From the NCBI GenBank assembly GCA_030123605.1, contig CP126123.1, positions 3,437,237 through 3,501,236 on the forward strand: DNA of 64,000 nt. The letters are read 5' to 3'. Within the stretch, counting starts at the first letter, position 1, and every line of letters starts with the position of its first letter. This stretch comes from Nitrospira sp. (GTDB lineage: Bacteria; Nitrospirota; Nitrospiria; Nitrospirales; Nitrospiraceae). The notes under the pieces were generated by a model that made no database searches, was not told the origin of the DNA, and saw only the letters and a list, made by a program, of their open reading frames with translations. This document shows, piece by piece, positions 11,141-50,201 of the stretch. Position numbers and translations under genes: made by a program.

Positions 11141-12226
11141 ATGCCCCTCTTGAAGAAATCTGCGCTCGATGCCTACCTCAAGGCCCGGTTCGGCCCCACC
11201 GCTTCATTGGTCGCCTACGGTCCGATCGGCAAGGAGACCACCGGTGCCAAGTACAAACAGTACGGATACGGTGCTCCGGTACGGTTGACCTTCCGTGTGG
11301 AGGGCAGGGTTCGTCGGGCGGTGTTGGGCACCATGAGTCCCGGTCCCTTCGGCCATGAACATCCAGCCGACCGGGCGCAGGCGATGTTGTGGGACTATGA
11401 TTGCTACGGCCGTCTGCCGCGGCATATCGCGGCACTGGATGTGGGTGCCTTTACCGAGCGTGGCGAGTTGATGTCCGTGGCGGCGGCGAAAGAATTCTTT
11501 CTGCTCACGCAATGGTCGGAGGGTGCCACCTACAACAACGATCTGGAGCGGCTCGCGAGAGCGACCAGGCCGACAGTACTCGACCGGAAGCGGGTGGAGG
11601 CGCTGGCCGATTACCTGGCGACCATCCATCGGGTGAAGCATCGTGATCCGCAGCTCTACCGGCGGCGCCTGCGGGAGTTGCTCGGTCACGGCGAGTGCAT
11701 CATGGGGCTGACCGACAGTTACCCCGATCGGTTCGAGTTCATTTCGGAAGACTTGCTGCAAGCGATCGAAACGGCCTGCAATGGATGGCGTTGGCGTCTG
11801 CGCGGCAAGCACGCTCGCCTGTCGCAGGTACACGGCGATTTCCACCCCTGGAACGTGCTCTTTCGCAAGGGGACCGACTTTTCGGTTCTCGACCGGTCGC
11901 GCGGCGAGTGGGGGGAACCGGCCGACGACGTCACCTCGATGTCGATCAATTATCTGTTCTTCTCCCTCTGCCGACACGGGACTTTGAAGGGACCGCTCGA
12001 AGTGCTGTTTCGATCGTTCTGGGACCGGTATCTGGCGGGCAGCCGCGACCATGGGGTGCTGGACACCACGGCACCGTTCTTTGCCTTCCGAGGTTTGGTA
12101 CTCGCCAGTCCGCTCTGGTATCCGAAATTGACCGTGACCGTGCGGCGGAAGCTGTTCCGGTTCATCGAAAACGTCCTAGCGGCGCCACGGTTCGATCCGG
12201 CCGATGTGAACCGGTATTGCCGATGA
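11141..12226 (+). CDS. Aminoglycoside-phosphotransferase-like (APH/choline kinase superfamily) protein
   Basis: HGDFHPWN catalytic loop; LDRSRGEWGEPADDV metal-binding region. Confidence 0.8.
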   Translation: MPLLKKSALDAYLKARFGPTASLVAYGPIGKETTGAKYKQYGYGAPVRLTFRVEGRVRRAVLGTMSPGPFGHEHPADRAQAMLWDYDCYGRLPRHIAALDVGAFTERGELMSVAAAKEFFLLTQWSEGATYNNDLERLARATRPTVLDRKRVEALADYLATIHRVKHRDPQLYRRRLRELLGHGECIMGLTDSYPDRFEFISEDLLQAIETACNGWRWRLRGKHARLSQVHGDFHPWNVLFRKGTDFSVLDRSRGEWGEPADDVTSMSINYLFFSLCRHGTLKGPLEVLFRSFWDRYLAGSRDHGVLDTTAPFFAFRGLVLASPLWYPKLTVTVRRKLFRFIENVLAAPRFDPADVNRYCR

Positions 12227-42489: not shown

Positions 42490-42685
42490 CTAGCCCACAT
42501 TATTCATGAACCCTTCTACTGCAATCGCCGATCCGCTGCTACGACGAGCCTTCGGCCGGCGGGCTCGCCCCTCGTTCCCTCAACGTACTGCACGAGTACG
42601 CCTCGGGTCCTTACGGCTCCGCGCGCCGGTCTCGCGACGCGGCTCCGCGATTTCGCCACGAACCGTCATGAATACTGTGGGCTAG
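42490..42685. mobile_element. MITE-like element copy C (196 bp, opposite orientation to A and B)
   Basis: CTAG-CCCACATTATTCATGA...TCATGAATACTGTGGG-CTAG. Confidence 0.88.
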
Positions 42686-43716
42686 CGCGCCGGCGCGGGA
42701 GCCCCCTTTCGGACTTCTTCCTCCAATGTCGCCAGGCGTTGTTCGAGGCGCCGGATGATTTCGAGGAGGCGTTGATTGGTTTCCTGGAACGCCGGCTGAG
42801 TGCTCTCGATCGGGGCAGGCGTTGTCGGAAGGGGTGAGGTATCACCCCGTTTCAGCTTCAATTCTAGGTCTTCCTTCGATCGTTCCAATTCGGAGATCCG
42901 GCGTTGCAGATCGGCAATGACCTTGGCCTCATCCTTGCCGAAGTGCTCCTGTTGAGCCGACTGCTTCACTTCTTCCACCCGTTTGGCCCGGTCGGGGTTC
43001 GACGCCAAAAACGGCCGGTAGGCAATTCCCAACGTCCGTTCCGGATACCCGAACAGGTCGCCTCGGCGGCTCTGTCTCTGATACTGCGGATCGTCGAAAA
43101 AGATCGCGAAGTCCTGTTCGCCGACGGAGAACCATGGATGGGCTCGGACGTAGTCCGTGGTTTCCCGCACATCCTCCAACTTGTCGATCGCTCCCACGTC
43201 CGATTGCCGGCGTCGGATCGGATGCCGGAAGTTGGCGATCATCACATAGAGGATCTCGTTCTGCACGAACAATGTTCCTGAGGTGACGGTCGATTGACCT
43301 TCCTGGCCGGGATGCTCGCAGGAAAAGGTGACGACTTCATCCGGTTTCGCCTGTTCGAGTGCCTCCTTGAGCGACGGAGCCAGGACCTCGATCTCTTTTG
43401 GTTCAAAGAGCCTTGGCGTGCCGGGAGTGCCGAGAAACGACCGCAGCAGACCGATTTTGTTACGGCCTGAAATGGAGGTCAGGAGGATCTCCAGCTGGTC
43501 CTCGCTGAACGGGACCGGGTGGTCGTGGGCGATTTCACCTGCCGCAGGTATCCGTCCGTTTGGTTCCAGCCGCACGATCGCATCGGGACTTTCATGGATG
43601 GTCCGTGCGGCAGGCAGCGTGGTCGTACATCCGCCTATGAGCAGTCCCATGGTAACGAAGGCGAGCCAGCGCGCTCGTGTCGTTCGATTCGTTGCGGGTT
43701 CGTGAAGCCGGTCCAT
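42682..43716 (-). CDS. Putative lipoprotein with C-terminal coiled coils
   Basis: Lipobox LIGGC; heptad-like LQRRISELE and IRRLEQRLATLEEE; starts ~20 nt after the aioA stop. Confidence 0.75.
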   Translation of the reverse strand: MDRLHEPATNRTTRARWLAFVTMGLLIGGCTTTLPAARTIHESPDAIVRLEPNGRIPAAGEIAHDHPVPFSEDQLEILLTSISGRNKIGLLRSFLGTPGTPRLFEPKEIEVLAPSLKEALEQAKPDEVVTFSCEHPGQEGQSTVTSGTLFVQNEILYVMIANFRHPIRRRQSDVGAIDKLEDVRETTDYVRAHPWFSVGEQDFAIFFDDPQYQRQSRRGDLFGYPERTLGIAYRPFLASNPDRAKRVEEVKQSAQQEHFGKDEAKVIADLQRRISELERSKEDLELKLKRGDTSPLPTTPAPIESTQPAFQETNQRLLEIIRRLEQRLATLEEEVRKGAPAPAR

Positions 43717-43735
43717 AAGCAAACATTCGCCGCAG

Positions 43736-46198
43736 CTACGATTGATTCGTCGGAATAAAGGTCAGACGCTCTTGCCACTCGGGCAACGCGCCGACTTTTC
43801 TGATACCGGCTTTGGTGCCCTTATAATAGGGGATCGTCGTGGCGGGGTCGACATAGCCCGTGGTCAAGCTGTTCAGCCAGCCATTCGGATGTTCGAACAA
43901 CATAAAGACATGCCCGGGTCGATTCGAGTCCACAAGGACCGCCATCGCCGTGACACTCCCGTACGGATTGAACAGTTCGATCAGGTCGCCGTTGGCCACC
44001 GCTAGCTTCGCCGCATCCTCCGGATGAAGTTCCACGAACGGCAGCGGCTCACGTCCCGCCACGTATGGCTTGCGCAGGTCGTCGTACAGGGTTTGCCAGC
44101 CGTGGTTGGATCGTCCGTTGTTCACCCAGAAGGGATAACGGTTGTCGTCCATGAGTTGCCGGATCGGCGCGGGATAGCCGGGCCACTTTGCCGGAATGAA
44201 GGTGAACCGCCCCCCCTCTTCATAGAGCCGTACTGTCCCGACGGGTGTGCCGTTTTCGATCCTCTTCACCGGTGTCTGCACGCCGTTGGTGCCGAGTGTT
44301 TTCAGCATGGCATAGGTGGTCTCGCCGTAATCTTCCTGAGCTCCTTTGACGCCGACCGCTGCCGCGCGAAAGACTTCTTCATCCGTCTGCCAATCGAATC
44401 CGCTGAAGCGCGCGGCCCTGTCCTGCTTGCCCTCATCGAGATACAGGCGTTCGATGCGTTGCGCCATCATCGCCATGATTTTCCAGTCCGGTTTCGCCAC
44501 GCCGGGCGGATCCATGAATTTCTGGTACAGTCGCAGCCGGCGTTCGCCATTGATCGACGTGAGGTTCATTTCACCCCATTGCGCGGCTGGAAATACCACA
44601 TGGGCAAATTTCGCGGTTTCGATCGGATAGATGTCCTGCACTAGGAGGAACAGACCCCCCTGTTTCATCGCGTCGAGGAGGGCGGCGACCCGTTGCTCCA
44701 TCGTCCTGCCTGCCGTCCGGTCCAACGCGTGGTTGACGAGTGCCGTCCGTCTTGCCAATGTGAGACGAAATTGTTGGGCGTTGAGTGTGCCCCCTGCCGG
44801 ATTGCAGCCGGCCACCCAAAAGACTTTGGATGCGCCTCCGTTGATCGCGACCTCATCGACGTTGACCGGTGGGCGTGTGCCCGGATAGTCGGGTCGGCTG
44901 TACCCTTCCTGATGGCCGCCCAGTCTCCCGCAGCCCGTGCCGGGCTTGCCGAGATTGCCGGTGAGGAGGGCGAGATCCACGACCGAGGCGACGTTTTCAT
45001 AGTTCTTCAGTCCCCAGATCAACCCCTTCTCATAGAGAAACAATGTTCGACGCCGGACGTTCGGGGCCTTCGGTTTCGCGATCCATTCGGCCGCCTGTAA
45101 CAGTTGAGCCTTGGACAGACCGGTCAGCGCGCTTGCTTCGTCGAGGTCCTGCGTCAGGTTGGTCGCCTTCATCGCGTCGAAGTTCTCGGTCTGCCGATCG
45201 ATGAACGCCTGATCCTGCCACCCTTGCTCATAGATCAAGCGGGACAAGGCATTCATCAACAGCATGTCGGTGCCGTTCCGGAGTTGCAGATGCAGAACGT
45301 TGTGTTTTCCCGCGGCAGACTCGGCGATCGCGACTGTTGACGTGCGCCGAGGGTCCACGATGATCATTTTCCCGGCCGCATGGGGCTCCTGCGGCAAGAG
45401 TTGCTTCTTCTTGGAGAGGGATGCCCCCGTCAGGTTGGGCAGCATGTGTTCGAGGAAATAGATGGATTGGGTTTCGTAGGAATTGGCTCCGACCAGGACG
45501 ATCGTGTCGGCCAGTTCCGCATCCAGGTAGGCGGAGGGAAGGGCGGCGATGCCCGCATCACGAGAGGCGAAGACCTCGCTGTTGTAGGCCGGCCGGTTGT
45601 GGATCGAGGCCATTTTGGTGCCGATGCCGGTGAAGAAAAATTTTCCGACCGCCCAATTGTTTTCGAAACCGCCTCCGCCTCCTCCGTGATCGAAGCACTT
45701 CATCGCCACGGTATCCGGCCCCCATGTGTCCATCGCGGCCTTGATCACGCGGGCACCCAGATCGATCGCCTCCTGCCAGGTCGTGGGCAGCTGAGTGCCG
45801 CCCCGATAGATCAACGGATGGAGGAGCCGGTCCGCCGTAGGACGATCCGGCGCATAGAGCACCGAGCCGTGCGTGCCGCCGCGAATCGAGTGATTGCCTC
45901 GGTTGACCACGCAGTCACTGTCCGGAAGCACGACCACGTGCGACTGGTTGCCGTCGTGGTCCGTGACGACGCTGTGCATCGCGGGCGAGATCCATTTCCC
46001 GGATTGTGCCGCCTGCTGTCTGGTGAAATCGGCCTGCAGAGCATTTTGCTCCGGCTTCGGTCCGCCCTCTTGCCCCTGCGGCCACTTGTAGACCCGATAG
46101 CCGCAGCCCACGATGCAATAGGAACAGACGGTGGTGAATTGTTCCGCATCGCGTGGGGGGATCGGCACCCGGTCTGGTCCATGGAAAATTGTGCTCAT
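43736..46198 (-). CDS. aioA: Arsenite oxidase large (molybdopterin) subunit
   Basis: CSYCIVGCGY [3Fe-4S] motif, HNRPAYNSE signature, EKGLIWG, RLGGHQEG, SINGERRLRLY, NNGR. Confidence 0.96.
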   Translation of the reverse strand: MSTIFHGPDRVPIPPRDAEQFTTVCSYCIVGCGYRVYKWPQGQEGGPKPEQNALQADFTRQQAAQSGKWISPAMHSVVTDHDGNQSHVVVLPDSDCVVNRGNHSIRGGTHGSVLYAPDRPTADRLLHPLIYRGGTQLPTTWQEAIDLGARVIKAAMDTWGPDTVAMKCFDHGGGGGGFENNWAVGKFFFTGIGTKMASIHNRPAYNSEVFASRDAGIAALPSAYLDAELADTIVLVGANSYETQSIYFLEHMLPNLTGASLSKKKQLLPQEPHAAGKMIIVDPRRTSTVAIAESAAGKHNVLHLQLRNGTDMLLMNALSRLIYEQGWQDQAFIDRQTENFDAMKATNLTQDLDEASALTGLSKAQLLQAAEWIAKPKAPNVRRRTLFLYEKGLIWGLKNYENVASVVDLALLTGNLGKPGTGCGRLGGHQEGYSRPDYPGTRPPVNVDEVAINGGASKVFWVAGCNPAGGTLNAQQFRLTLARRTALVNHALDRTAGRTMEQRVAALLDAMKQGGLFLLVQDIYPIETAKFAHVVFPAAQWGEMNLTSINGERRLRLYQKFMDPPGVAKPDWKIMAMMAQRIERLYLDEGKQDRAARFSGFDWQTDEEVFRAAAVGVKGAQEDYGETTYAMLKTLGTNGVQTPVKRIENGTPVGTVRLYEEGGRFTFIPAKWPGYPAPIRQLMDDNRYPFWVNNGRSNHGWQTLYDDLRKPYVAGREPLPFVELHPEDAAKLAVANGDLIELFNPYGSVTAMAVLVDSNRPGHVFMLFEHPNGWLNSLTTGYVDPATTIPYYKGTKAGIRKVGALPEWQERLTFIPTNQS

Positions 46199-46230: not shown

Positions 46231-46755
46231 TTATCCGAGAATATTCGCTCGTCGGCCATAGACCAATCCCATGATCCCGACTGCATAGATGTCGCCCGTC
46301 CCGTCCACCTCCAATCGGATTTGCGGAAGGTTGTCGGTGGCTTGTCCGATGACCGTCAGGCCGCCCTTGGCCGCATCGAACCGGGCATAGTGCAACGGGC
46401 AGTGGAAGGCTCCGGTGTCCGGTCGAAAATCCAGCGCCCCGCCCATGTGGCTACAGAGGCGACTGTAGGCGACGATGTCGGAGTCCGGTCCGATTCCATT
46501 GATCGCCTTCTTACCCAGTTTCAGCAGGCTGATCGGCGAGTCGTTGTCGGGGTAGGTCAATCTTATTTCGACGCCCGCTTTGAGTTGCGCGCTGTTGGCG
46601 AGCTTGAGGCGTGGGTAGGGCAACACCGTTGTGATGGTCGGCCGGTCCGGGGCCTCTCGTGAAGCCGCAGCTTCAGAGAGTGCTTCACCGGCACACACTC
46701 CTCCTGCCGCGCAGGCACCGAGCTTCAGAAAACTTCTTCGCGACATCCCGCTCAT
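46231..46755 (-). CDS. aioB: Arsenite oxidase small Rieske subunit, Tat-exported
   Basis: SRRSFLK twin-arginine signal; CSHMG and CPLHYARFD Rieske boxes; YPDNDSP, GIGPDSDIVAYS, LVYGR. Confidence 0.96.
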   Translation of the reverse strand: MSGMSRRSFLKLGACAAGGVCAGEALSEAAASREAPDRPTITTVLPYPRLKLANSAQLKAGVEIRLTYPDNDSPISLLKLGKKAINGIGPDSDIVAYSRLCSHMGGALDFRPDTGAFHCPLHYARFDAAKGGLTVIGQATDNLPQIRLEVDGTGDIYAVGIMGLVYGRRANILG

Positions 46756-46800: not shown

Positions 46801-48276
46801 TTACAATACATATTGGAATCGAGTGAAGATTTCGTAGATATGCCGTTCGACCCCCGTCGCCTGGGTTCGGTTTGCCAAGAAACTCCCCATGAAGGCATGG
46901 GCGGCGCCTACGTCCAGGTTGAGATTCTTGGCGAGGTTGTAGGTCAACATGGCGCCGTTCTCCGTCCCCATGTATGTAGAACCACCACGGGTTCCAAAAT
47001 CGCGCGACCTGGCGGCCGAGAAGTAGGCGCTTTCCAAGGTGCCGGTCAGTTTGGGCACGATGGGGAATTTCAGCTGTCCTTGTACGGTCCAGAGTCCGGC
47101 CCCTCCGTTATTGAGGTTCGTCCCGAAATCGTTCACGTCGCCCGGTGCATTGGCATTGAAAATGTGTGAATAGCCCCAATAGCCGTTGGTGCCGAGAATG
47201 GCTTCCGGGGTCGTGAACTGGTTGGCGGTGTATCCGGCCTTGTCGCCCGAGGCGTACAGCATGAAGAGATTCACAGTCGTGGCTCCGATCGGCAGACTGC
47301 CTTCGAACTTTCCCGAATAGCCGGTATGGTTGTTGCCGGTCAACCCGGTTCCGATACGGCCGGTATTGAGCATAAGGTAACCGTTCCAAGCCCCGATTCC
47401 GAACAGCGATCCCGACGCCGTCAGAGCCGCCCAATGTTCATGGGTGTCGCCGATGTCGATGTTCTCGGTCTTGCCGAGGTTCATCGTATAGTAGTGCCCG
47501 CCGACTTTCAGATCGTAGCCGCCCATTGTGATCGGCTTGTTGTAATCCACGACCCACATGTCGCCGTTCTTGCCGAATCCCGTCCCGATCGTGCCGGCTT
47601 TCAAGTCCGAGGCAAAGCGGTAAAACCCGACTCGATAGTCGCCGTCGCCGATTTTTCCACCGAGCGCCGCGCCGCCCACGAAGAAATCCCATTCACCGTC
47701 CCAGAGCACCCGCCCGACCTGGTCCATGGTGGGGAGAATGCCCACGACCAAGGTGTGGTTTTCGATCGGCGTCACATAGATGTACCCGTAACGAATCCCA
47801 CGCGCCTGGAGGCGGTTGAACGCGTTGGGCGTTCCATCGACATTGGCGCCCGATTCTCCGCGCGGATCGCTCGCAGCGGGGCTCGATCCTCCGAATCCGC
47901 CGCGATATTCCATCTGGAAATAGCCGCCGACATTGTCGGAACCCTTGGGGCGAATGTCGAAGGCCAGCCGCATGCGTTGCCGCGCAAAATCATAGCCCGT
48001 CGTATCGCCGAAGTTAAGCCGCCCCGGGCCTGTTCCGGCCGAGGGTAATGATCCGCTGTTGACTCCGCTCGGAATGTTGCTCGCGTTGAACATGATCCGA
48101 TACTGAGCCCAGACGCGCAGGCGGATGTTCTCGATCGGCACGGCGTAGGCATTTTCGTTGGCCGGTTCCGGGAAGGGGATCTGATCGGCGCAGGCGGAGG
48201 TTGTCACGAGGAAGTGCGCCCCATTCAGAATAATTATCAGCGCAAGGAATGCGAGGTTCAGTTGCTGGTTCTTCAT
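46801..48276 (-). CDS. Outer-membrane beta-barrel/porin-like protein
   Basis: Sec signal; alternating amphipathic beta-strands rich in G/Y/F/N; C-terminal IFTRFQYVL. Confidence 0.75.
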   Translation of the reverse strand: MKNQQLNLAFLALIIILNGAHFLVTTSACADQIPFPEPANENAYAVPIENIRLRVWAQYRIMFNASNIPSGVNSGSLPSAGTGPGRLNFGDTTGYDFARQRMRLAFDIRPKGSDNVGGYFQMEYRGGFGGSSPAASDPRGESGANVDGTPNAFNRLQARGIRYGYIYVTPIENHTLVVGILPTMDQVGRVLWDGEWDFFVGGAALGGKIGDGDYRVGFYRFASDLKAGTIGTGFGKNGDMWVVDYNKPITMGGYDLKVGGHYYTMNLGKTENIDIGDTHEHWAALTASGSLFGIGAWNGYLMLNTGRIGTGLTGNNHTGYSGKFEGSLPIGATTVNLFMLYASGDKAGYTANQFTTPEAILGTNGYWGYSHIFNANAPGDVNDFGTNLNNGGAGLWTVQGQLKFPIVPKLTGTLESAYFSAARSRDFGTRGGSTYMGTENGAMLTYNLAKNLNLDVGAAHAFMGSFLANRTQATGVERHIYEIFTRFQYVL

Positions 48277-48386
48277 GCCGCCCTTTCTTTCGATCTGCCG
48301 GGTATGTATATCAACATATCTCAATGTATCGATGTCATGGCCGGGAGAATCCGACCGTCGCGTTTTGCAACCCCTGTGATTGAGAA

Positions 48387-49538
48387 TTAAGAGCCCGAGG
48401 AGGATCTCGTGAGCACCCACTCGACAAGGAGATAGGCCGCACCGGCAAAGAAGGCGCTTGCCGGGAGGGTGACGACCCAGGCCAACAACATGTCCCGCAC
48501 GGTTCGCCATTGGATCGTGCGCCAGCCGCGCAGGAAGCCGATCCCGATAATGGCGCTGCTACTGAGATGCGTGGTGGAAACCGGCAGGCCGAGCGTCGCA
48601 GACGTAAGCACCAGAGATGAGGTCGTCACATTGGCCGAGAGTCCTTCGATGTGGTCCATTTTCGTGACCTTCTCCGCCAGGACCTCCGTCACCCGCCGGC
48701 CGCCCCAATAGCTTCCCAGCCCCATGGCAAGGGTGGCTCCGCCGAAGGTCGTAACTTGCAGCAGTGGGCTCGGCCACGTAGCGACGCCGCTTCCGAGCAA
48801 CAGGATGGCGGCGATCTTGGGGGTATCGTTGGCTCCCCTGGCAAAGGCCGTGAGACCGCTCGATAACCAATGCAGACTGTCCAGACCGATCACGAACCCT
48901 TTCAGCCCCTCACGCTCACACTGGGCCGGGACCGCCGCGATCGGTGTCCGGAATCCAGTCGCTTGATAGAGCGTTCTCGTGCCACCTTGTGCATCGACCA
49001 TGATGAGCGCGCGGTAGGTGGGCGTGAGGCACAGACAGGAACCTTTCCACCTGGTTGCCATGCGTTTGATCAACGGATAGAACAGGAGCGCGACCACGAG
49101 GGCAAAGAGCGGACTTAACAAGAGAGGTAATCCGATCTTCTTCACGAGACTCGACCAGATCAATTGCTCGAAGCCGTAGGCTAAAAGGCCGGTTCCTACC
49201 AATGATCCCATCAATGCATGGGTGGTCGAAACGGGCAGGCCTGTTTTTGATGCCAACAGCACCCAGGCTACGGAGCCGGTGAGGACCGAAATTGCCAGCG
49301 ACGGTTGGATGGTGGCTTGTGTCGGTAAAAATCCTGTGCTGAAGGTCTTCACCATGGCGGTTGCGAGGAAAGCCGACAATCCTGCGCCGGCGATCGTCCA
49401 ACAGGTTCCCCACACGATGGCGGTGCCGTAGTTCGTGACCCCGCTCCCCACGAGGGTGGCGATGGACTTCGATACATCGTTCGTGCCGTTTGCGAATGCG
49501 AGCAAGAGCACAAGTATGAAGGTGAACGTGGTCAGCAT
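48387..49538 (-). CDS. PiT (inorganic phosphate transporter) family protein
   Basis: Two PiT signatures ANGTNDVSKSIAT and ARGANDTPK; two PVSTTH motifs. Confidence 0.9.
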   Translation of the reverse strand: MLTTFTFILVLLLAFANGTNDVSKSIATLVGSGVTNYGTAIVWGTCWTIAGAGLSAFLATAMVKTFSTGFLPTQATIQPSLAISVLTGSVAWVLLASKTGLPVSTTHALMGSLVGTGLLAYGFEQLIWSSLVKKIGLPLLLSPLFALVVALLFYPLIKRMATRWKGSCLCLTPTYRALIMVDAQGGTRTLYQATGFRTPIAAVPAQCEREGLKGFVIGLDSLHWLSSGLTAFARGANDTPKIAAILLLGSGVATWPSPLLQVTTFGGATLAMGLGSYWGGRRVTEVLAEKVTKMDHIEGLSANVTTSSLVLTSATLGLPVSTTHLSSSAIIGIGFLRGWRTIQWRTVRDMLLAWVVTLPASAFFAGAAYLLVEWVLTRSSSGS

Positions 49539-49588
49539 CCCAAGGAGTCGTCCATCGTCGAGGGTTCTTACGGCGCAACGCCGGGTCA

Positions 49589-49942
49589 TTAATGACTGGT
49601 GCGGCTCCGGAGAATGGTTTCTGGAAAGGTCAGTTGGCAGCAGCCGAAGTCGAGGGCCTGTGCTTTTGTCGCGGTCAATGCCCGCCGGAACTGAGGGTTG
49701 ACTCTGTAGCAAATCCGTTGCCCCTCGCGGATGCCCTCGATGAGTCCTGCATGCCGCAATATCCGGAGGTGGTGAGAAACATGCGGCTGCGATTTTTGGA
49801 GTTCGGAAACCAAATCCGTGACACATTGTTCGTGTGTCAGCAACGATTCGAGAATCCTCAGGCGGGTCTTGTCTCCCAATGCTCGTAACAGATCGGCGCA
49901 CTCGCCGGTGCTCAGGACGTCTGTGGGCGTAGATTTCACCAT
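49589..49942 (-). CDS. arsR: ArsR/SmtB family transcriptional repressor with C-terminal vicinal Cys pair
   Basis: LRALGDKTRLRIL, SQPHVSHHLRILRHAGLI wHTH; DFGCC; GGGGAGGG RBS. Confidence 0.88.
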   Translation of the reverse strand: MVKSTPTDVLSTGECADLLRALGDKTRLRILESLLTHEQCVTDLVSELQKSQPHVSHHLRILRHAGLIEGIREGQRICYRVNPQFRRALTATKAQALDFGCCQLTFPETILRSRTSH

Positions 49943-50056
49943 GGGCCACACCCTCCCCGCTTTGACGGTGTTCGCTGCAGGACCCTGTTGATTCGGACGT
50001 TCAGGGCTTGAAGTCGTATAAAAGTAACTGCATGTATCAATTAGTCGGTCTCGGAG

Positions 50057-50069
50057 TCAAATGATTTGA
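50057..50069. promoter_or_regulatory. Candidate operator palindrome TCAAAT-G-ATTTGA in the arsR/usp divergent region
   Basis: Perfect 6-1-6 inverted repeat in an AT-rich intergenic stretch; function not demonstrated. Confidence 0.3.
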
Positions 50070-50201
50070 TTCTGGGCTTCTCCAGCGGAAGGTGAACAGG
50101 ATCTATTGACCTGATTCTCGATTGTGGCGAATATGCGCCTTCGTGGCACGGAGCCTGCACCTGCCATCTACAATAATCGACCAGCCGATGGGGGACTGTC
50201 T

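Follow-up and report, generated by a model that had tools for sequence, protein, structure and literature searches.

The gene under study lies in a window of 64,000 nucleotides (the whole stretch of DNA that was analysed) from the closed genome of a Nitrospira sp. (contig CP126123.1) and encodes a PiT-type permease with a cysteine-bearing central loop, here called the Cys-loop PiT. The gene belongs to an operon that starts with an ArsR/SmtB-family repressor gene and continues into an outer-membrane channel gene, the arsenite oxidase genes aioB and aioA and a last conserved gene (Table 1). The preliminary description of this DNA had noted that the permease gene follows arsR directly, and a gap of 50 nt was indeed all that separated the two. 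Translation of the permease could also begin 17 residues earlier, at an alternative in-frame ATG at position 49589 that shares bases with the arsR stop codon (TAATG).

Table 1 Features of the operon and of the Cys-loop PiT gene (positions in the window)
Feature	Position	Strand	Remarks
arsR-family repressor gene, first of operon	49589..49951	minus	Pfam HTH_5 2.9e-17; NF033788 87.5 bits
Cys-loop PiT permease gene	48387..49538	minus	383 aa, stop-free translation; PHO4 profile match
First repeat signature NGTNDVSK, residues 17-24	49467..49490	minus	N20, D21 kept; K24 for Asn of GANDVAN
Cys-triad loop, residues 165-211 (KGSCLCLTPT...PAQCEREG)	48906..49046	minus	predicted beta-hairpin and short helix
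Loop cysteine codons	C168 49035-49037; C170 49029-49031; C207 48918-48920	minus	
Second repeat signature RGANDTPK, residues 234-241	48816..48839	minus	N237, D238 kept; K241 as in PitA-type
Asn303 codon	48630..48632	minus	position of acidic third-cation-site residue (TmPiT D327, hPiT2 E575), by alignment
PiT-porin spacer, 110 nt	48277..48386	minus	AT-rich GATACAT/GATATACATA element
Outer-membrane beta-barrel channel gene	46801..48276	minus	491 aa, about 18 strands; fold comparison
aioB, arsenite oxidase Rieske subunit with Tat signal	46231..46755	minus	TIGR02694 154 bits vs cut-off 95.65
aioA, arsenite oxidase molybdopterin subunit	43736..46198	minus	TIGR02693 1040 bits vs cut-off 359
Conserved 346-aa protein gene, last of operon	42682..43722	minus	no family match

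The repressor carries conserved Cys18, Cys43 and Cys91 and a C-terminal Cys113-Cys114 pair, a pattern that was kept in the orthologues from loci L104, L107, L108 and L004. The AT-rich core of the spacer behind the PiT gene was partly conserved in L104, L107 and L108, and this putative element may act as an internal promoter or operator. The channel protein was identified by fold comparison only: Pfam and a sequence search of the PDB returned no match, and its AlphaFold2 model (pLDDT 77.5) was closest to AlgE and the OccK/OprD porins (TM 0.56-0.69). Its alternating arginines (R99, R101, R103 and others) were invariant in the alignment, which suggests an anion channel.

The arsR-PiT-channel-aioBA operon was conserved in relatives down to 76% PiT identity. 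In operons of this aio type the channel gene always came after the PiT gene, and the gene for the 346-aa protein was also found behind aioA in loci L104-L110, L113 and L114. The arsR-PiT order was the same in L004 and L104-L110, and arsR lay inside the island in L113 and L114. By its position with arsR and arsenic genes, conserved across relatives, the PiT gene is a putative member of an ars regulon. In L004 the channel gene and aioBA were deleted and the arsR-PiT pair remained, an arrangement that resembles a minimal regulator-plus-pump unit.

Residues 17-365 of the permease matched positions 1-350 of the Pfam PHO4 profile (PF01384, TC 2.A.20) with 227.1 bits (cut-off 33.7, E 3.8e-67). This was the sole meaningful Pfam match, and the arsenic-permease families gave none. 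A match to HTH_IclR at residues 95-120, with 22.8 bits just above the cut-off of 22, was judged spurious because it is located on the membrane hairpin GLPVSTTH. The best NCBIfam matches were to the sulfate permease CysP (NF053884, 86.7 bits against 400) and to the PitA equivalog (NF033774, 84.1 bits against 800), and with scores so far under the cut-offs the protein was assigned to neither. An AlphaFold2 model (pLDDT 94.2, pTM 0.91) showed the two inverted five-helix repeats with re-entrant hairpins that define the PiT fold (helices at residues 2-31, 37-67, 79-98, 105-121 and 128-164, and a mirrored set at 219-381). Using Foldseek, the model was aligned at TM 0.73-0.75 with TmPiT from Thermotoga maritima (PDB 6L85; E 7.9e-29), the one relative whose structure has been solved.

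TmPiT and the Cys-loop PiT share the 5+5 inverted-repeat core and its two re-entrant hairpins, as well as the Asn-Asp pairs and Ser-Thr-Thr hairpin tips that form the site for phosphate and two sodium ions. All eight phosphate-binding residues were retained (D21, S104/T105/T106, D238 and S321/T322/T323, aligned with TmPiT D22, S105-T107, D258 and S345-T347) and in the homologue alignment each was either invariant or conserved at 90% or more. The pocket for an oxyanion of phosphate shape is intact, and since the full constellation is kept, import of phosphate or arsenate is possible. The cation site, in contrast, was remodelled, with Asn303 in place of Asp/Glu, His223 in place of Gln and Lys24 in place of Asn. 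The third sodium site of TmPiT (T29, Q243, S247, D327) corresponds to T28, H223, S227 and N303 here, and a role in that site has been described for the position of TmPiT D327 and hPiT2 E575 (PMC7413737). Where TmPiT-type signatures read GANDVAN, the Cys-loop PiT has GTNDVSK, the departure already pointed out in the preliminary description, and GANDTPK in the second repeat. With the acidic third-site residue absent and both signatures ending in Lys, the protein departs from the pattern of sodium-coupled PiT (SLC20) carriers.

These changes had to be read against other members of the same Pfam family, namely E. coli PitA and a second PiT of the window genome that is linked to PhoU_div, which are 33-39% identical to the Cys-loop PiT. 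PitA-type carriers are proton-coupled metal-phosphate symporters. They differ from the Cys-loop PiT by a His-Asp in the first signature, by the lack of a Cys loop, by a PhoU-like partner gene and by having no arsenic neighbours; the second-signature lysine (GANDAQK or GANDGQK) is common to both. The two signature lysines were considered as proof of lost cation coupling, a reading that was tempered by the presence of the second lysine in PitA importers. E. coli PitA, an importer, also has no acidic residue at the aligned third-site position. The site changes are therefore no proof of export, and by alignment only the first-repeat lysine is special to the Cys-loop PiT.

The largest structural difference from TmPiT lies between the repeats, where two scaffold helices (residues ~161-244) are replaced by a 55-residue Cys-bearing beta-hairpin. 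The three-cysteine loop reported in the preliminary description was thus found where it had been placed, between the two PiT halves. Variability of these cysteines was one of two conditions that together were to refute the arsenic role proposed there; instead, C168, C170 and C207 were invariant in 121/121 homologues (63-100% identity), and C46 was not conserved among the same 121. Cysteine made up 5.0% of the loop versus 0.35% of the remainder of the protein, so that by composition the loop cysteines exceed chance. Across the wider family, 83 loci were picked by an N-terminal motif without regard to cysteine, and CxC...C was found in 73 of them and other Cys-rich patterns in 4 more. The arrangement differed among members (CxC..C, CC..C, C..CxxCxC) with at least three cysteines retained. 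Some family members had no loop or no cysteines and still adjoined arsM/arsS, and the triad is therefore not essential to the arsenic role.

In the AlphaFold2 model the loop comprised strands at residues 168-171, 173-181, 187-196 and 200-202 and a helix at 204-209 (pLDDT 74-93), and it was predicted with confidence to be a cytoplasmic beta-hairpin. The triad sat on the linker that joins the two inverted repeats, in a soluble loop outside the membrane path. The termini of TmPiT are extracellular (PMC7413737). With the N-terminus outside by this topology the loop comes after the third membrane crossing, and from this and from the positive charges that flank the loop we infer that it faces the cytoplasm. 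In that compartment the three thiols would be reduced and would form a putative three-sulfur site, which by analogy may be like the As(III) sites of ArsR, ArsD and ArsA. The retention of at least three cysteines in varied arrangements, as in convergent As(III) sites, was seen in the PiT loop, here in what would be a reducing compartment. A disulfide role for the cysteines was rejected because an odd number of crossings from an extracellular N-terminus leaves the loop cytoplasmic. A Cys3-His zinc site with His223 was weakened as a candidate, given that this residue was equally conserved in members lacking the loop or its cysteines.

A tree was built with FastTree. The Cys-loop PiT branch was present in at least 584 species-representative genomes and had a single member in the window genome; the 80 loci examined spanned more than 10 phyla, and nitrite oxidisers and anammox bacteria were among the hosts. 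In 59/83 loci arsM/arsS lay within 5 kb of the PiT gene, mostly directly upstream and on the same strand, and for Cys-triad members whose loci had 3 kb or more of sequence on each side they were nearby in 32/42. Linkage of this extent, over more than 10 phyla, indicates that the arsenic context is not incidental. Usual neighbours were ArsS (455 bits), ArsM-like methyltransferases, a TIGR04283 glycosyltransferase and a VTT/DedA membrane protein, so that arsenosugar-type ArsM-ArsS clusters (TIGR04167, TIGR04283) form the usual neighbourhood of the branch. NCBIfam models exist for the enzymes of these clusters and none exists for the transporter. An arsC gene was nearby in 4/83 loci only, rhodanese genes occurred in 5 loci, and no phosphate-regulon gene (PhoU, PstS, Pho) was found beside any sampled member of the branch.

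The window differs from these clusters in that its PiT gene is away from arsM/arsS and heads an aio operon. Within the genus Nitrospira the aio link held in 7/8 AioA-positive genomes. It was rejected as the context that defines the branch, being seen only in this genus, with arsM/arsS as the partners elsewhere. The linkage to ars genes that the preliminary description suggested examining extended far beyond the window, and the linkage to aio genes was confined to Nitrospira. The new arsenic PiT subfamily proposed there was borne out as a distinct multi-phylum branch with conserved cysteines and ties to arsenic genes, but its main link is to arsM/arsS rather than to arsR or aio.

Nitrospira arsenic islands have the order arsM-arsR-arsS-PiT-channel-aioB-aioA-x, followed by arsC-acr3-arsM-arsR, and most of them also carry Acr3 and ArsC. 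In the window genome the island is split, with arsM/arsS 46 kb away from the PiT gene. A profile search of this closed genome gave no match to ArsB (PF02040), Acr3 (TIGR00832) or ArsP (PF03773), and LMWP ArsC was absent from it as well; Acr3 was present in 21/24 Nitrospira congeners. The separate PhoU_div-PiT pair of the window genome covers housekeeping phosphate uptake.

The recognised membrane carriers of arsenic are ArsB, Acr3, ArsP, ArsJ, ArsK and the aquaglyceroporins, and phosphate carriers are regarded only as an accidental route of entry for arsenate. To our knowledge, and within the papers searched, no characterised arsenic permease is a PiT. In the literature searched, no PiT was described from clusters of the ars, arsM or arsenosugar kind, and the Cys-loop PiT branch is apparently undescribed. 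Like the genes for ArsB, Acr3, ArsP, ArsJ and ArsK, the PiT gene follows arsR in a setting of ars, arsM and aio genes; unlike their products, the Cys-loop PiT has an unrelated fold and family. Its gene context recalls the transporter-enzyme pairing of GAPDH-ArsJ, and its use of cysteine recalls ArsP, with its cysteine pair, and Acr3, in which one cysteine is essential.

Taken from sequence and gene context, the product is probably a dedicated arsenic-handling carrier. Our preferred, though tentative, reading is that it is an ArsR-controlled arsenical exporter with an arsenate-type oxyanion as the favoured cargo and a Cys triad that, by binding trivalent arsenic, serves to sense it or to hand it on. 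As(III) would lift ArsR repression so that the carrier is made, trivalent arsenic would then occupy the triad, and the carrier would export an arsenical from the cytoplasm. The intact anion site favours a pentavalent arsenic oxyanion, arsenate or another, and trivalent species would be possible cargo. Sodium-free movement of the anion, driven outward by the membrane potential, would be in keeping with a cation site that has lost its acidic residue and acquired fixed lysines. The arginine-lined outer-membrane channel would let anionic arsenate exit, including arsenate made by the periplasmic Aio.

Points for export are the conservation of the cysteines, the arsM/arsS linkage, the conserved arsR-PiT-channel-aioBA operon and the arsR-PiT pair of L004. 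Further points are the lack of Acr3, ArsB, ArsP and LMWP ArsC in the genome, the separate housekeeping PiT and the absence of phosphate-regulon neighbours. Against export, the eight phosphate-binding residues are kept, and on chemical grounds the protein could simply take up phosphate; most Nitrospira islands have Acr3 and ArsC and show no obvious need for a further exporter. Arsenate is moreover neither substrate nor product of ArsM/ArsS, which weakens arsenate export as a reading of the family-wide linkage.

Retention of the phosphate site would also suit an importer. One such reading, which we consider unlikely, is a phosphate importer that discriminates against arsenate and is co-expressed with arsenic genes to secure phosphate for a cell whose periplasm fills with arsenate from Aio; phosphate would enter through the channel, acting as a porin, and the triad would activate the carrier in response to As(III). 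The adjacent arginine-lined channel is consistent with this, as is the lack of arsC in the window genome, which would make keeping arsenate out important, and pst/pho/phn genes adjoin aioBA in proteobacterial arsenic islands (PMC3834237). However, the family-wide partner is arsM/arsS and not aio, and sampled members have no PhoU, PstS or Pho gene beside them, unlike the housekeeping PiT, which is paired with PhoU_div. We also know of no PiT carriers that discriminate well against arsenate. Rather improbable is an arsenate importer that feeds organoarsenical synthesis (ArsC to ArsM to ArsS), in which As(III) on the triad would be a feedback brake, tethering the two repeats and halting uptake when arsenite accumulates. 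The intact oxyanion site, the tight and often adjacent same-strand placement with arsM/arsS, the position of the triad on the linker between the repeats and the ArsC of full Nitrospira islands all point this way. ArsC was nearby in just 4/83 loci, though, and ArsR-induced import would be harmful where the carrier stands alone (L004) or where the genome has no arsenate reductase (the window genome); oxidising As(III) outside, then importing and re-reducing it, would be wasteful.

The arsM/arsS linkage itself is best fitted by a permease for efflux of trivalent arsenicals (As(OH)3, MAs(III), DMAs(III)), as the substrates and products of these enzymes are trivalent. With the triad in the substrate path and Aio oxidising what is exported, this would also account for the gene order PiT-channel-aioBA, the minimal pair in L004 and the absence of Acr3, ArsB and ArsP from the window genome, and the cysteines of ArsP and Acr3 offer an analogy. 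It is nevertheless distinctly improbable: the eight retained phosphate-binding residues point to a four-oxygen anion, Cys-less members keep the arsenic context, and the cysteines are in a soluble loop and not in the membrane path. Very improbable, finally, is an ordinary phosphate or CysP-like sulfate permease whose cysteines coordinate a structural zinc or have nothing to do with arsenic, its arsenic neighbourhood being incidental or reflecting the sulfur demand of detoxification. CysP and PitA as the best NCBIfam matches (both far under cut-offs), the rhodanese genes in 5 loci and the nearness of His223 and Asp219 to the loop as a possible fourth zinc ligand could be cited for it. Against these stand the extent of the arsM/arsS linkage (59/83 loci, more than 10 phyla), the retention of His223 in members lacking the loop or cysteines, a constant feature of three cysteines rather than four ligands and the housekeeping PiT that is already present.

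A bolder form of the preferred export reading, possible but doubtful, would make the branch a new family of bacterial arsenic efflux permeases on the phosphate-transporter fold, in which the cytoplasmic triad bridges the inverted repeats and As(III) held by it gates the elevator movement. Fixed lysines would stand in for the sodium ions, and the arsenic oxyanion would be expelled by the membrane potential. The PiT, the arginine-lined channel and the periplasmic arsenite oxidase would then form a complete two-membrane line of arsenic disposal.

The window genome is the discriminating case among these readings, as its PiT gene stands apart from arsM/arsS, heads the aio operon and is accompanied by no known arsenite pump. 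More generally, a cysteine-marked PiT branch travels with genes that methylate arsenic, start arsenosugar synthesis and oxidise arsenite, and is thereby a frequent participant in the cycling of arsenic in the environment. The Cys-loop PiT may further illustrate the rewiring of a sodium-coupled elevator carrier through fixed charges and a linker that binds a metalloid.

The arsR, PiT, channel, aioB, aioA, and x genes lie on one strand, and the gaps from PiT through x are 110, 45, 32, and 13 nt. The PiT protein was covered end to end by the PHO4 model from Pfam (227 bits, E = 3.8e-67). Residues 17-24 read NGTNDVSK, residues 234-241 read RGANDTPK, and loop residues 165-211 read KGSCLCLTPT...PAQCEREG. 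A preliminary description had placed a PiT gene behind arsR, with GTNDVSK as first signature and this cysteine loop between its halves, and was correct as written. At the junction, TAATG (49587-49591) overlaps the arsR stop with an ATG in frame with PiT. A start there would lengthen the protein by 17 mostly basic residues to the 400 aa of protein P0002 and would give translational coupling. The 383-aa form is used by most gene callers and homologues, and its start fits better with both the homologues and the positive-inside rule.

Features of the Cys-loop PiT operon and of the second arsenic locus in the window genome
Feature	Position	Strand	Details
Region upstream of arsR	49952-50080		contains TTGATACATG
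ArsR/SmtB gene	49589-49951	-	ends 50 nt upstream of PiT gene
Cys-loop PiT gene	48387-49538	-	open frame, 383 codons
PiT-channel spacer	48277-48386		contains AT-rich element GATACATTGAGATATGTTGATATACATA
Channel gene	46801-48276	-	491-aa outer-membrane protein, no family match, downstream of PiT
aioB		-	TIGR02694, downstream of channel gene
aioA		-	TIGR02693 (1040 bits), downstream of aioB
Gene x	42682-43722	-	346 aa, no family match, downstream of aioA
Second arsenic locus (L103), beside hflKC	G000 (window genome) C1:3524000-3542000		ArsM-like (399 aa)-ArsS facing ArsM (321 aa)-ArsR

The spacer element was partly conserved in three related operons, and it and the element upstream of arsR could serve as ArsR operators or as an internal promoter. 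Protein x was found behind aioA in every Nitrospira operon (42-44% identity in distant copies) and is a conserved, unassigned part of the Nitrospira aio system. In the ArsR encoded by the aio-type operon, only one Cys of the classical CVC motif is present (QCVTDL), along with a conserved C-terminal Cys-Cys pair. The CVC motif itself was present in the genome's second ArsR and, in the same comparison, in E. coli ArsR; the two patterns thus indicate two types of As(III) site in one genome.

TmPiT (PDB 6L85) was the sole solved relative by both sequence (E = 7.9e-29) and fold (TM 0.73-0.75). An AlphaFold2 model built on 96 family members (pLDDT 94.2, pTM 0.91) showed a 5+5 inverted-repeat core. 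Between the repeats TmPiT has two scaffold helices, whereas the window PiT was modelled with a small beta-hairpin domain (residues 165-218, pLDDT 74-93; strands 168-171, 173-181, 187-196, and 200-202; helix 204-209). Both TmPiT termini are outside the cell (PMC7413737). Given a similarly placed N-terminus, followed by three crossings and one re-entrant hairpin, the Cys loop should be cytoplasmic, as flanking basic residues also suggest, and its thiols would therefore be free. All eight phosphate ligands of TmPiT (D22, D258, S105/T106/T107, and S345/T346/T347; PMC7413737) are kept as D21, D238, S104-T106, and S321-T323, positions with little or no variation in the family alignment of this branch, and the oxyanion pocket is intact. 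The third sodium site of TmPiT (T29, Q243, S247, and D327, where D327Q abolishes phosphate binding; PMC7413737) corresponds to T28, H223, S227, and N303. Of the two changed positions (223 and 303), the PitA-like protein of the window genome has Gln at the first and Glu at the second, the acidic one, which is Gln in E. coli PitA; cation coupling is probably altered in the Cys-loop PiT. Lys24, in place of the Asn of GANDVAN, is specific to the Cys-loop branch, and Lys241 also occurs in PitA types (GANDAQK).

By profile, fold, and substrate residues, the window protein is a true PiT-family member. It was assigned to a separate branch based upon the PHO4, fold, and residue comparisons and upon NCBIfam scores far under the cut-offs for PitA (84 bits vs 800) and CysP (87 vs 400). 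It belonged to none of the sodium-coupled SLC20 type, the PitA and CysP equivalogs, and the known arsenic permease families.

Conservation of the loop cysteines, on which the proposal of an arsenic-handling PiT had leaned, was borne out: C168, C170, and C207 occurred in 121/121 best database homologues (63-100% identity), among which the fourth cysteine, C46, was not conserved. Among 1.84 billion cluster representatives, 417 relatives were found with E ≤ 1e-30. Cys stood at each triad position in 106-115 of the 139 full-length top representatives, and those without the triad mostly had a short loop. One genome per prokaryotic species was then scanned using only the N-terminal motif NG[AS]ND[NVI][SF]K[GA], which gave at least 584 loci; the 80 that most resembled the query were combined with the window and two assemblies into a set of 83. 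CxC...C was found in 73 of these, C...CxxCxC in three, and CC...C in one (Cupriavidus), while a few had a short loop without cysteines. Cys made up 5.0% of loop residues vs 0.35% elsewhere in the protein, and exactly three was the commonest loop count (46/81). Loop sequence and the length between cysteines varied freely across phyla. Three thiolates are the classical As(III) ligand set, established for ArsR, ArsD, and ArsA, and a variable arrangement with a constant minimum of three would have the look of convergent As(III) sites.

In order to describe the genomic neighborhood, every ORF lying up to 5 kb from PiT was clustered across the 83 loci, and neighbors, taken as raw ORFs, were recognized by BLAST seeds. 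Since many contigs end short of the full neighborhood, the counts are lower bounds. The biggest cluster (63 loci) comprised ArsS radical SAM enzymes (TIGR04167, 455 bits) and ArsM-like methyltransferases, most directly upstream of PiT on the same strand. The suggested linkage of the family to ars and aio genes held for ArsM or ArsS (59/83 loci) but hardly for ArsR (7/83) or AioA (1/83, the window); seeds also recognized a TIGR04283 arsenosugar glycosyltransferase (17/83), a VTT/DedA membrane protein (15/83), LMWP ArsC (4/83), and Acr3 (1/83). Where both flanks reached 3 kb or more (49 loci), ArsM/ArsS was found at 32/42 Cys-triad members and 4/7 others. Carriers belonged to Nitrospirota, Nitrospinota, Acidobacteriota, Gemmatimonadota, Chloroflexota, Planctomycetota (anammox), Verrucomicrobiota, Bacteroidota, Myxococcota, Bdellovibrionota, Omnitrophota, Actinomycetota, and Pseudomonadota. 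NCBIfam holds curated models for the ArsS, glycosyltransferase, and ArsM of such clusters and none for the Cys-loop PiT carrier, and a literature search of incomplete coverage found no description of PiT in ars, arsM/arsS, or aio clusters.

Within the genus, the Cys-loop PiT was present in 14/25 genomes and AioA in 8/25; in 7/8 AioA-positive genomes PiT lay ~2.2 kb upstream of aioA on the same strand. One congener (G015) had two aioA copies (C3:520881-523259 and C34:9244-11622) and no Cys-loop PiT at E ≤ 1e-40, so the oxidase can exist without this carrier. Two loci (L113 and L114) hold a full island beside hflK, ArsM(395)-ArsR-ArsS-PiT-channel-AioB-AioA-x followed by ArsC-Acr3-ArsM(321)-ArsR, and two others (L115 and L005) the same island without channel-aioBA. 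The hflK site of the window genome is syntenic with this island and retains its ArsM-ArsS and ArsM-ArsR parts, having lost PiT, ArsC, and Acr3. The arsR-PiT-channel-aioB-aioA-x module lies 46 kb away and is kept in relatives with PiT 87, 80, and 76% identical. At L113 (4862-5194) and L114 (11471-11764), a window-type arsR (57-59% identity) separates the ArsM-like gene from arsS, so the window arsR-PiT junction looks like the island string minus arsS. In a FastTree phylogeny, the five arsR-led PiT copies formed one clade (support 100), sister to arsS-led Nitrospira copies, both within a Nitrospirota clade (support 100). At L004, a 106-codon ORF after arsR-PiT (11265-11585) joins the N-terminus of the channel (60% identity) to the end of x (87%), which indicates that channel-aioB-aioA was deleted and arsR-PiT left intact.

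The channel protein has a signal peptide and matched nothing in Pfam or, by sequence, in the PDB. Its model is a barrel of ~18 strands (pLDDT 77.5), closest to the alginate exporter AlgE and OccK/OprD channels (TM 0.56-0.69), which carry anionic substrates. Many Arg are invariant in the family alignment, including R60, R99, R101, R103, R159, R162, and R215; R99, R101, and R103 alternate and on a strand would face one side, and the pore may be anion-selective. Between Nitrospira genomes with just 62% PiT identity, the channel was 85% identical.

We tentatively read the Cys-loop PiT as an ArsR-controlled exporter of an arsenical, which is plausible if short of probable. The arsR-PiT pair has persisted by itself, as a minimal regulator-pump operon would, the PiT-channel-aioBA order resembles a disposal line, and the window genome is without another known arsenic pump. 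A search of the whole closed genome found no Acr3, ArsB, ArsP, or LMWP ArsC; since the PF02040 (ArsB) search gave no hit in its E. coli control, and arsB is present in E. coli K-12, absence of ArsB was rechecked by tblastn. One 116-aa CxxC ArsC/Spx-like gene, in an unrelated place, and one MIP channel were found. Against export, most islands also hold Acr3 and ArsC (Acr3 was present in 21/24 congeners), Cys-less members keep the arsenic context, and E. coli PitA, an importer, shares two of the site changes. Two import readings are reasonable rivals, each less likely than export: arsenate import with As(III) as a feedback brake and, somewhat likelier, selective phosphate import, which would be analogous to the pst/pho genes that occur in proteobacterial arsenic islands (PMC3834237). 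A housekeeping phosphate carrier is encoded elsewhere in the genome, which favors export; this second PiT (330 aa, PHO4 310 bits) is paired, as usual, with PhoU_div, unlike the Cys-loop PiT. Loci without arsenic neighbors had unrelated genes, and no phosphate-regulon gene was seen.

For an exporter, the intact four-oxygen pocket favors arsenate (or methylarsonate) as cargo, whereas arsM/arsS linkage favors a trivalent arsenic species. ArsR would control the carrier, the Cys triad would be a sensor or hand-off site for As(III) or methyl-As(III), and the Arg-lined channel would be the exit for arsenate, including that made by Aio.
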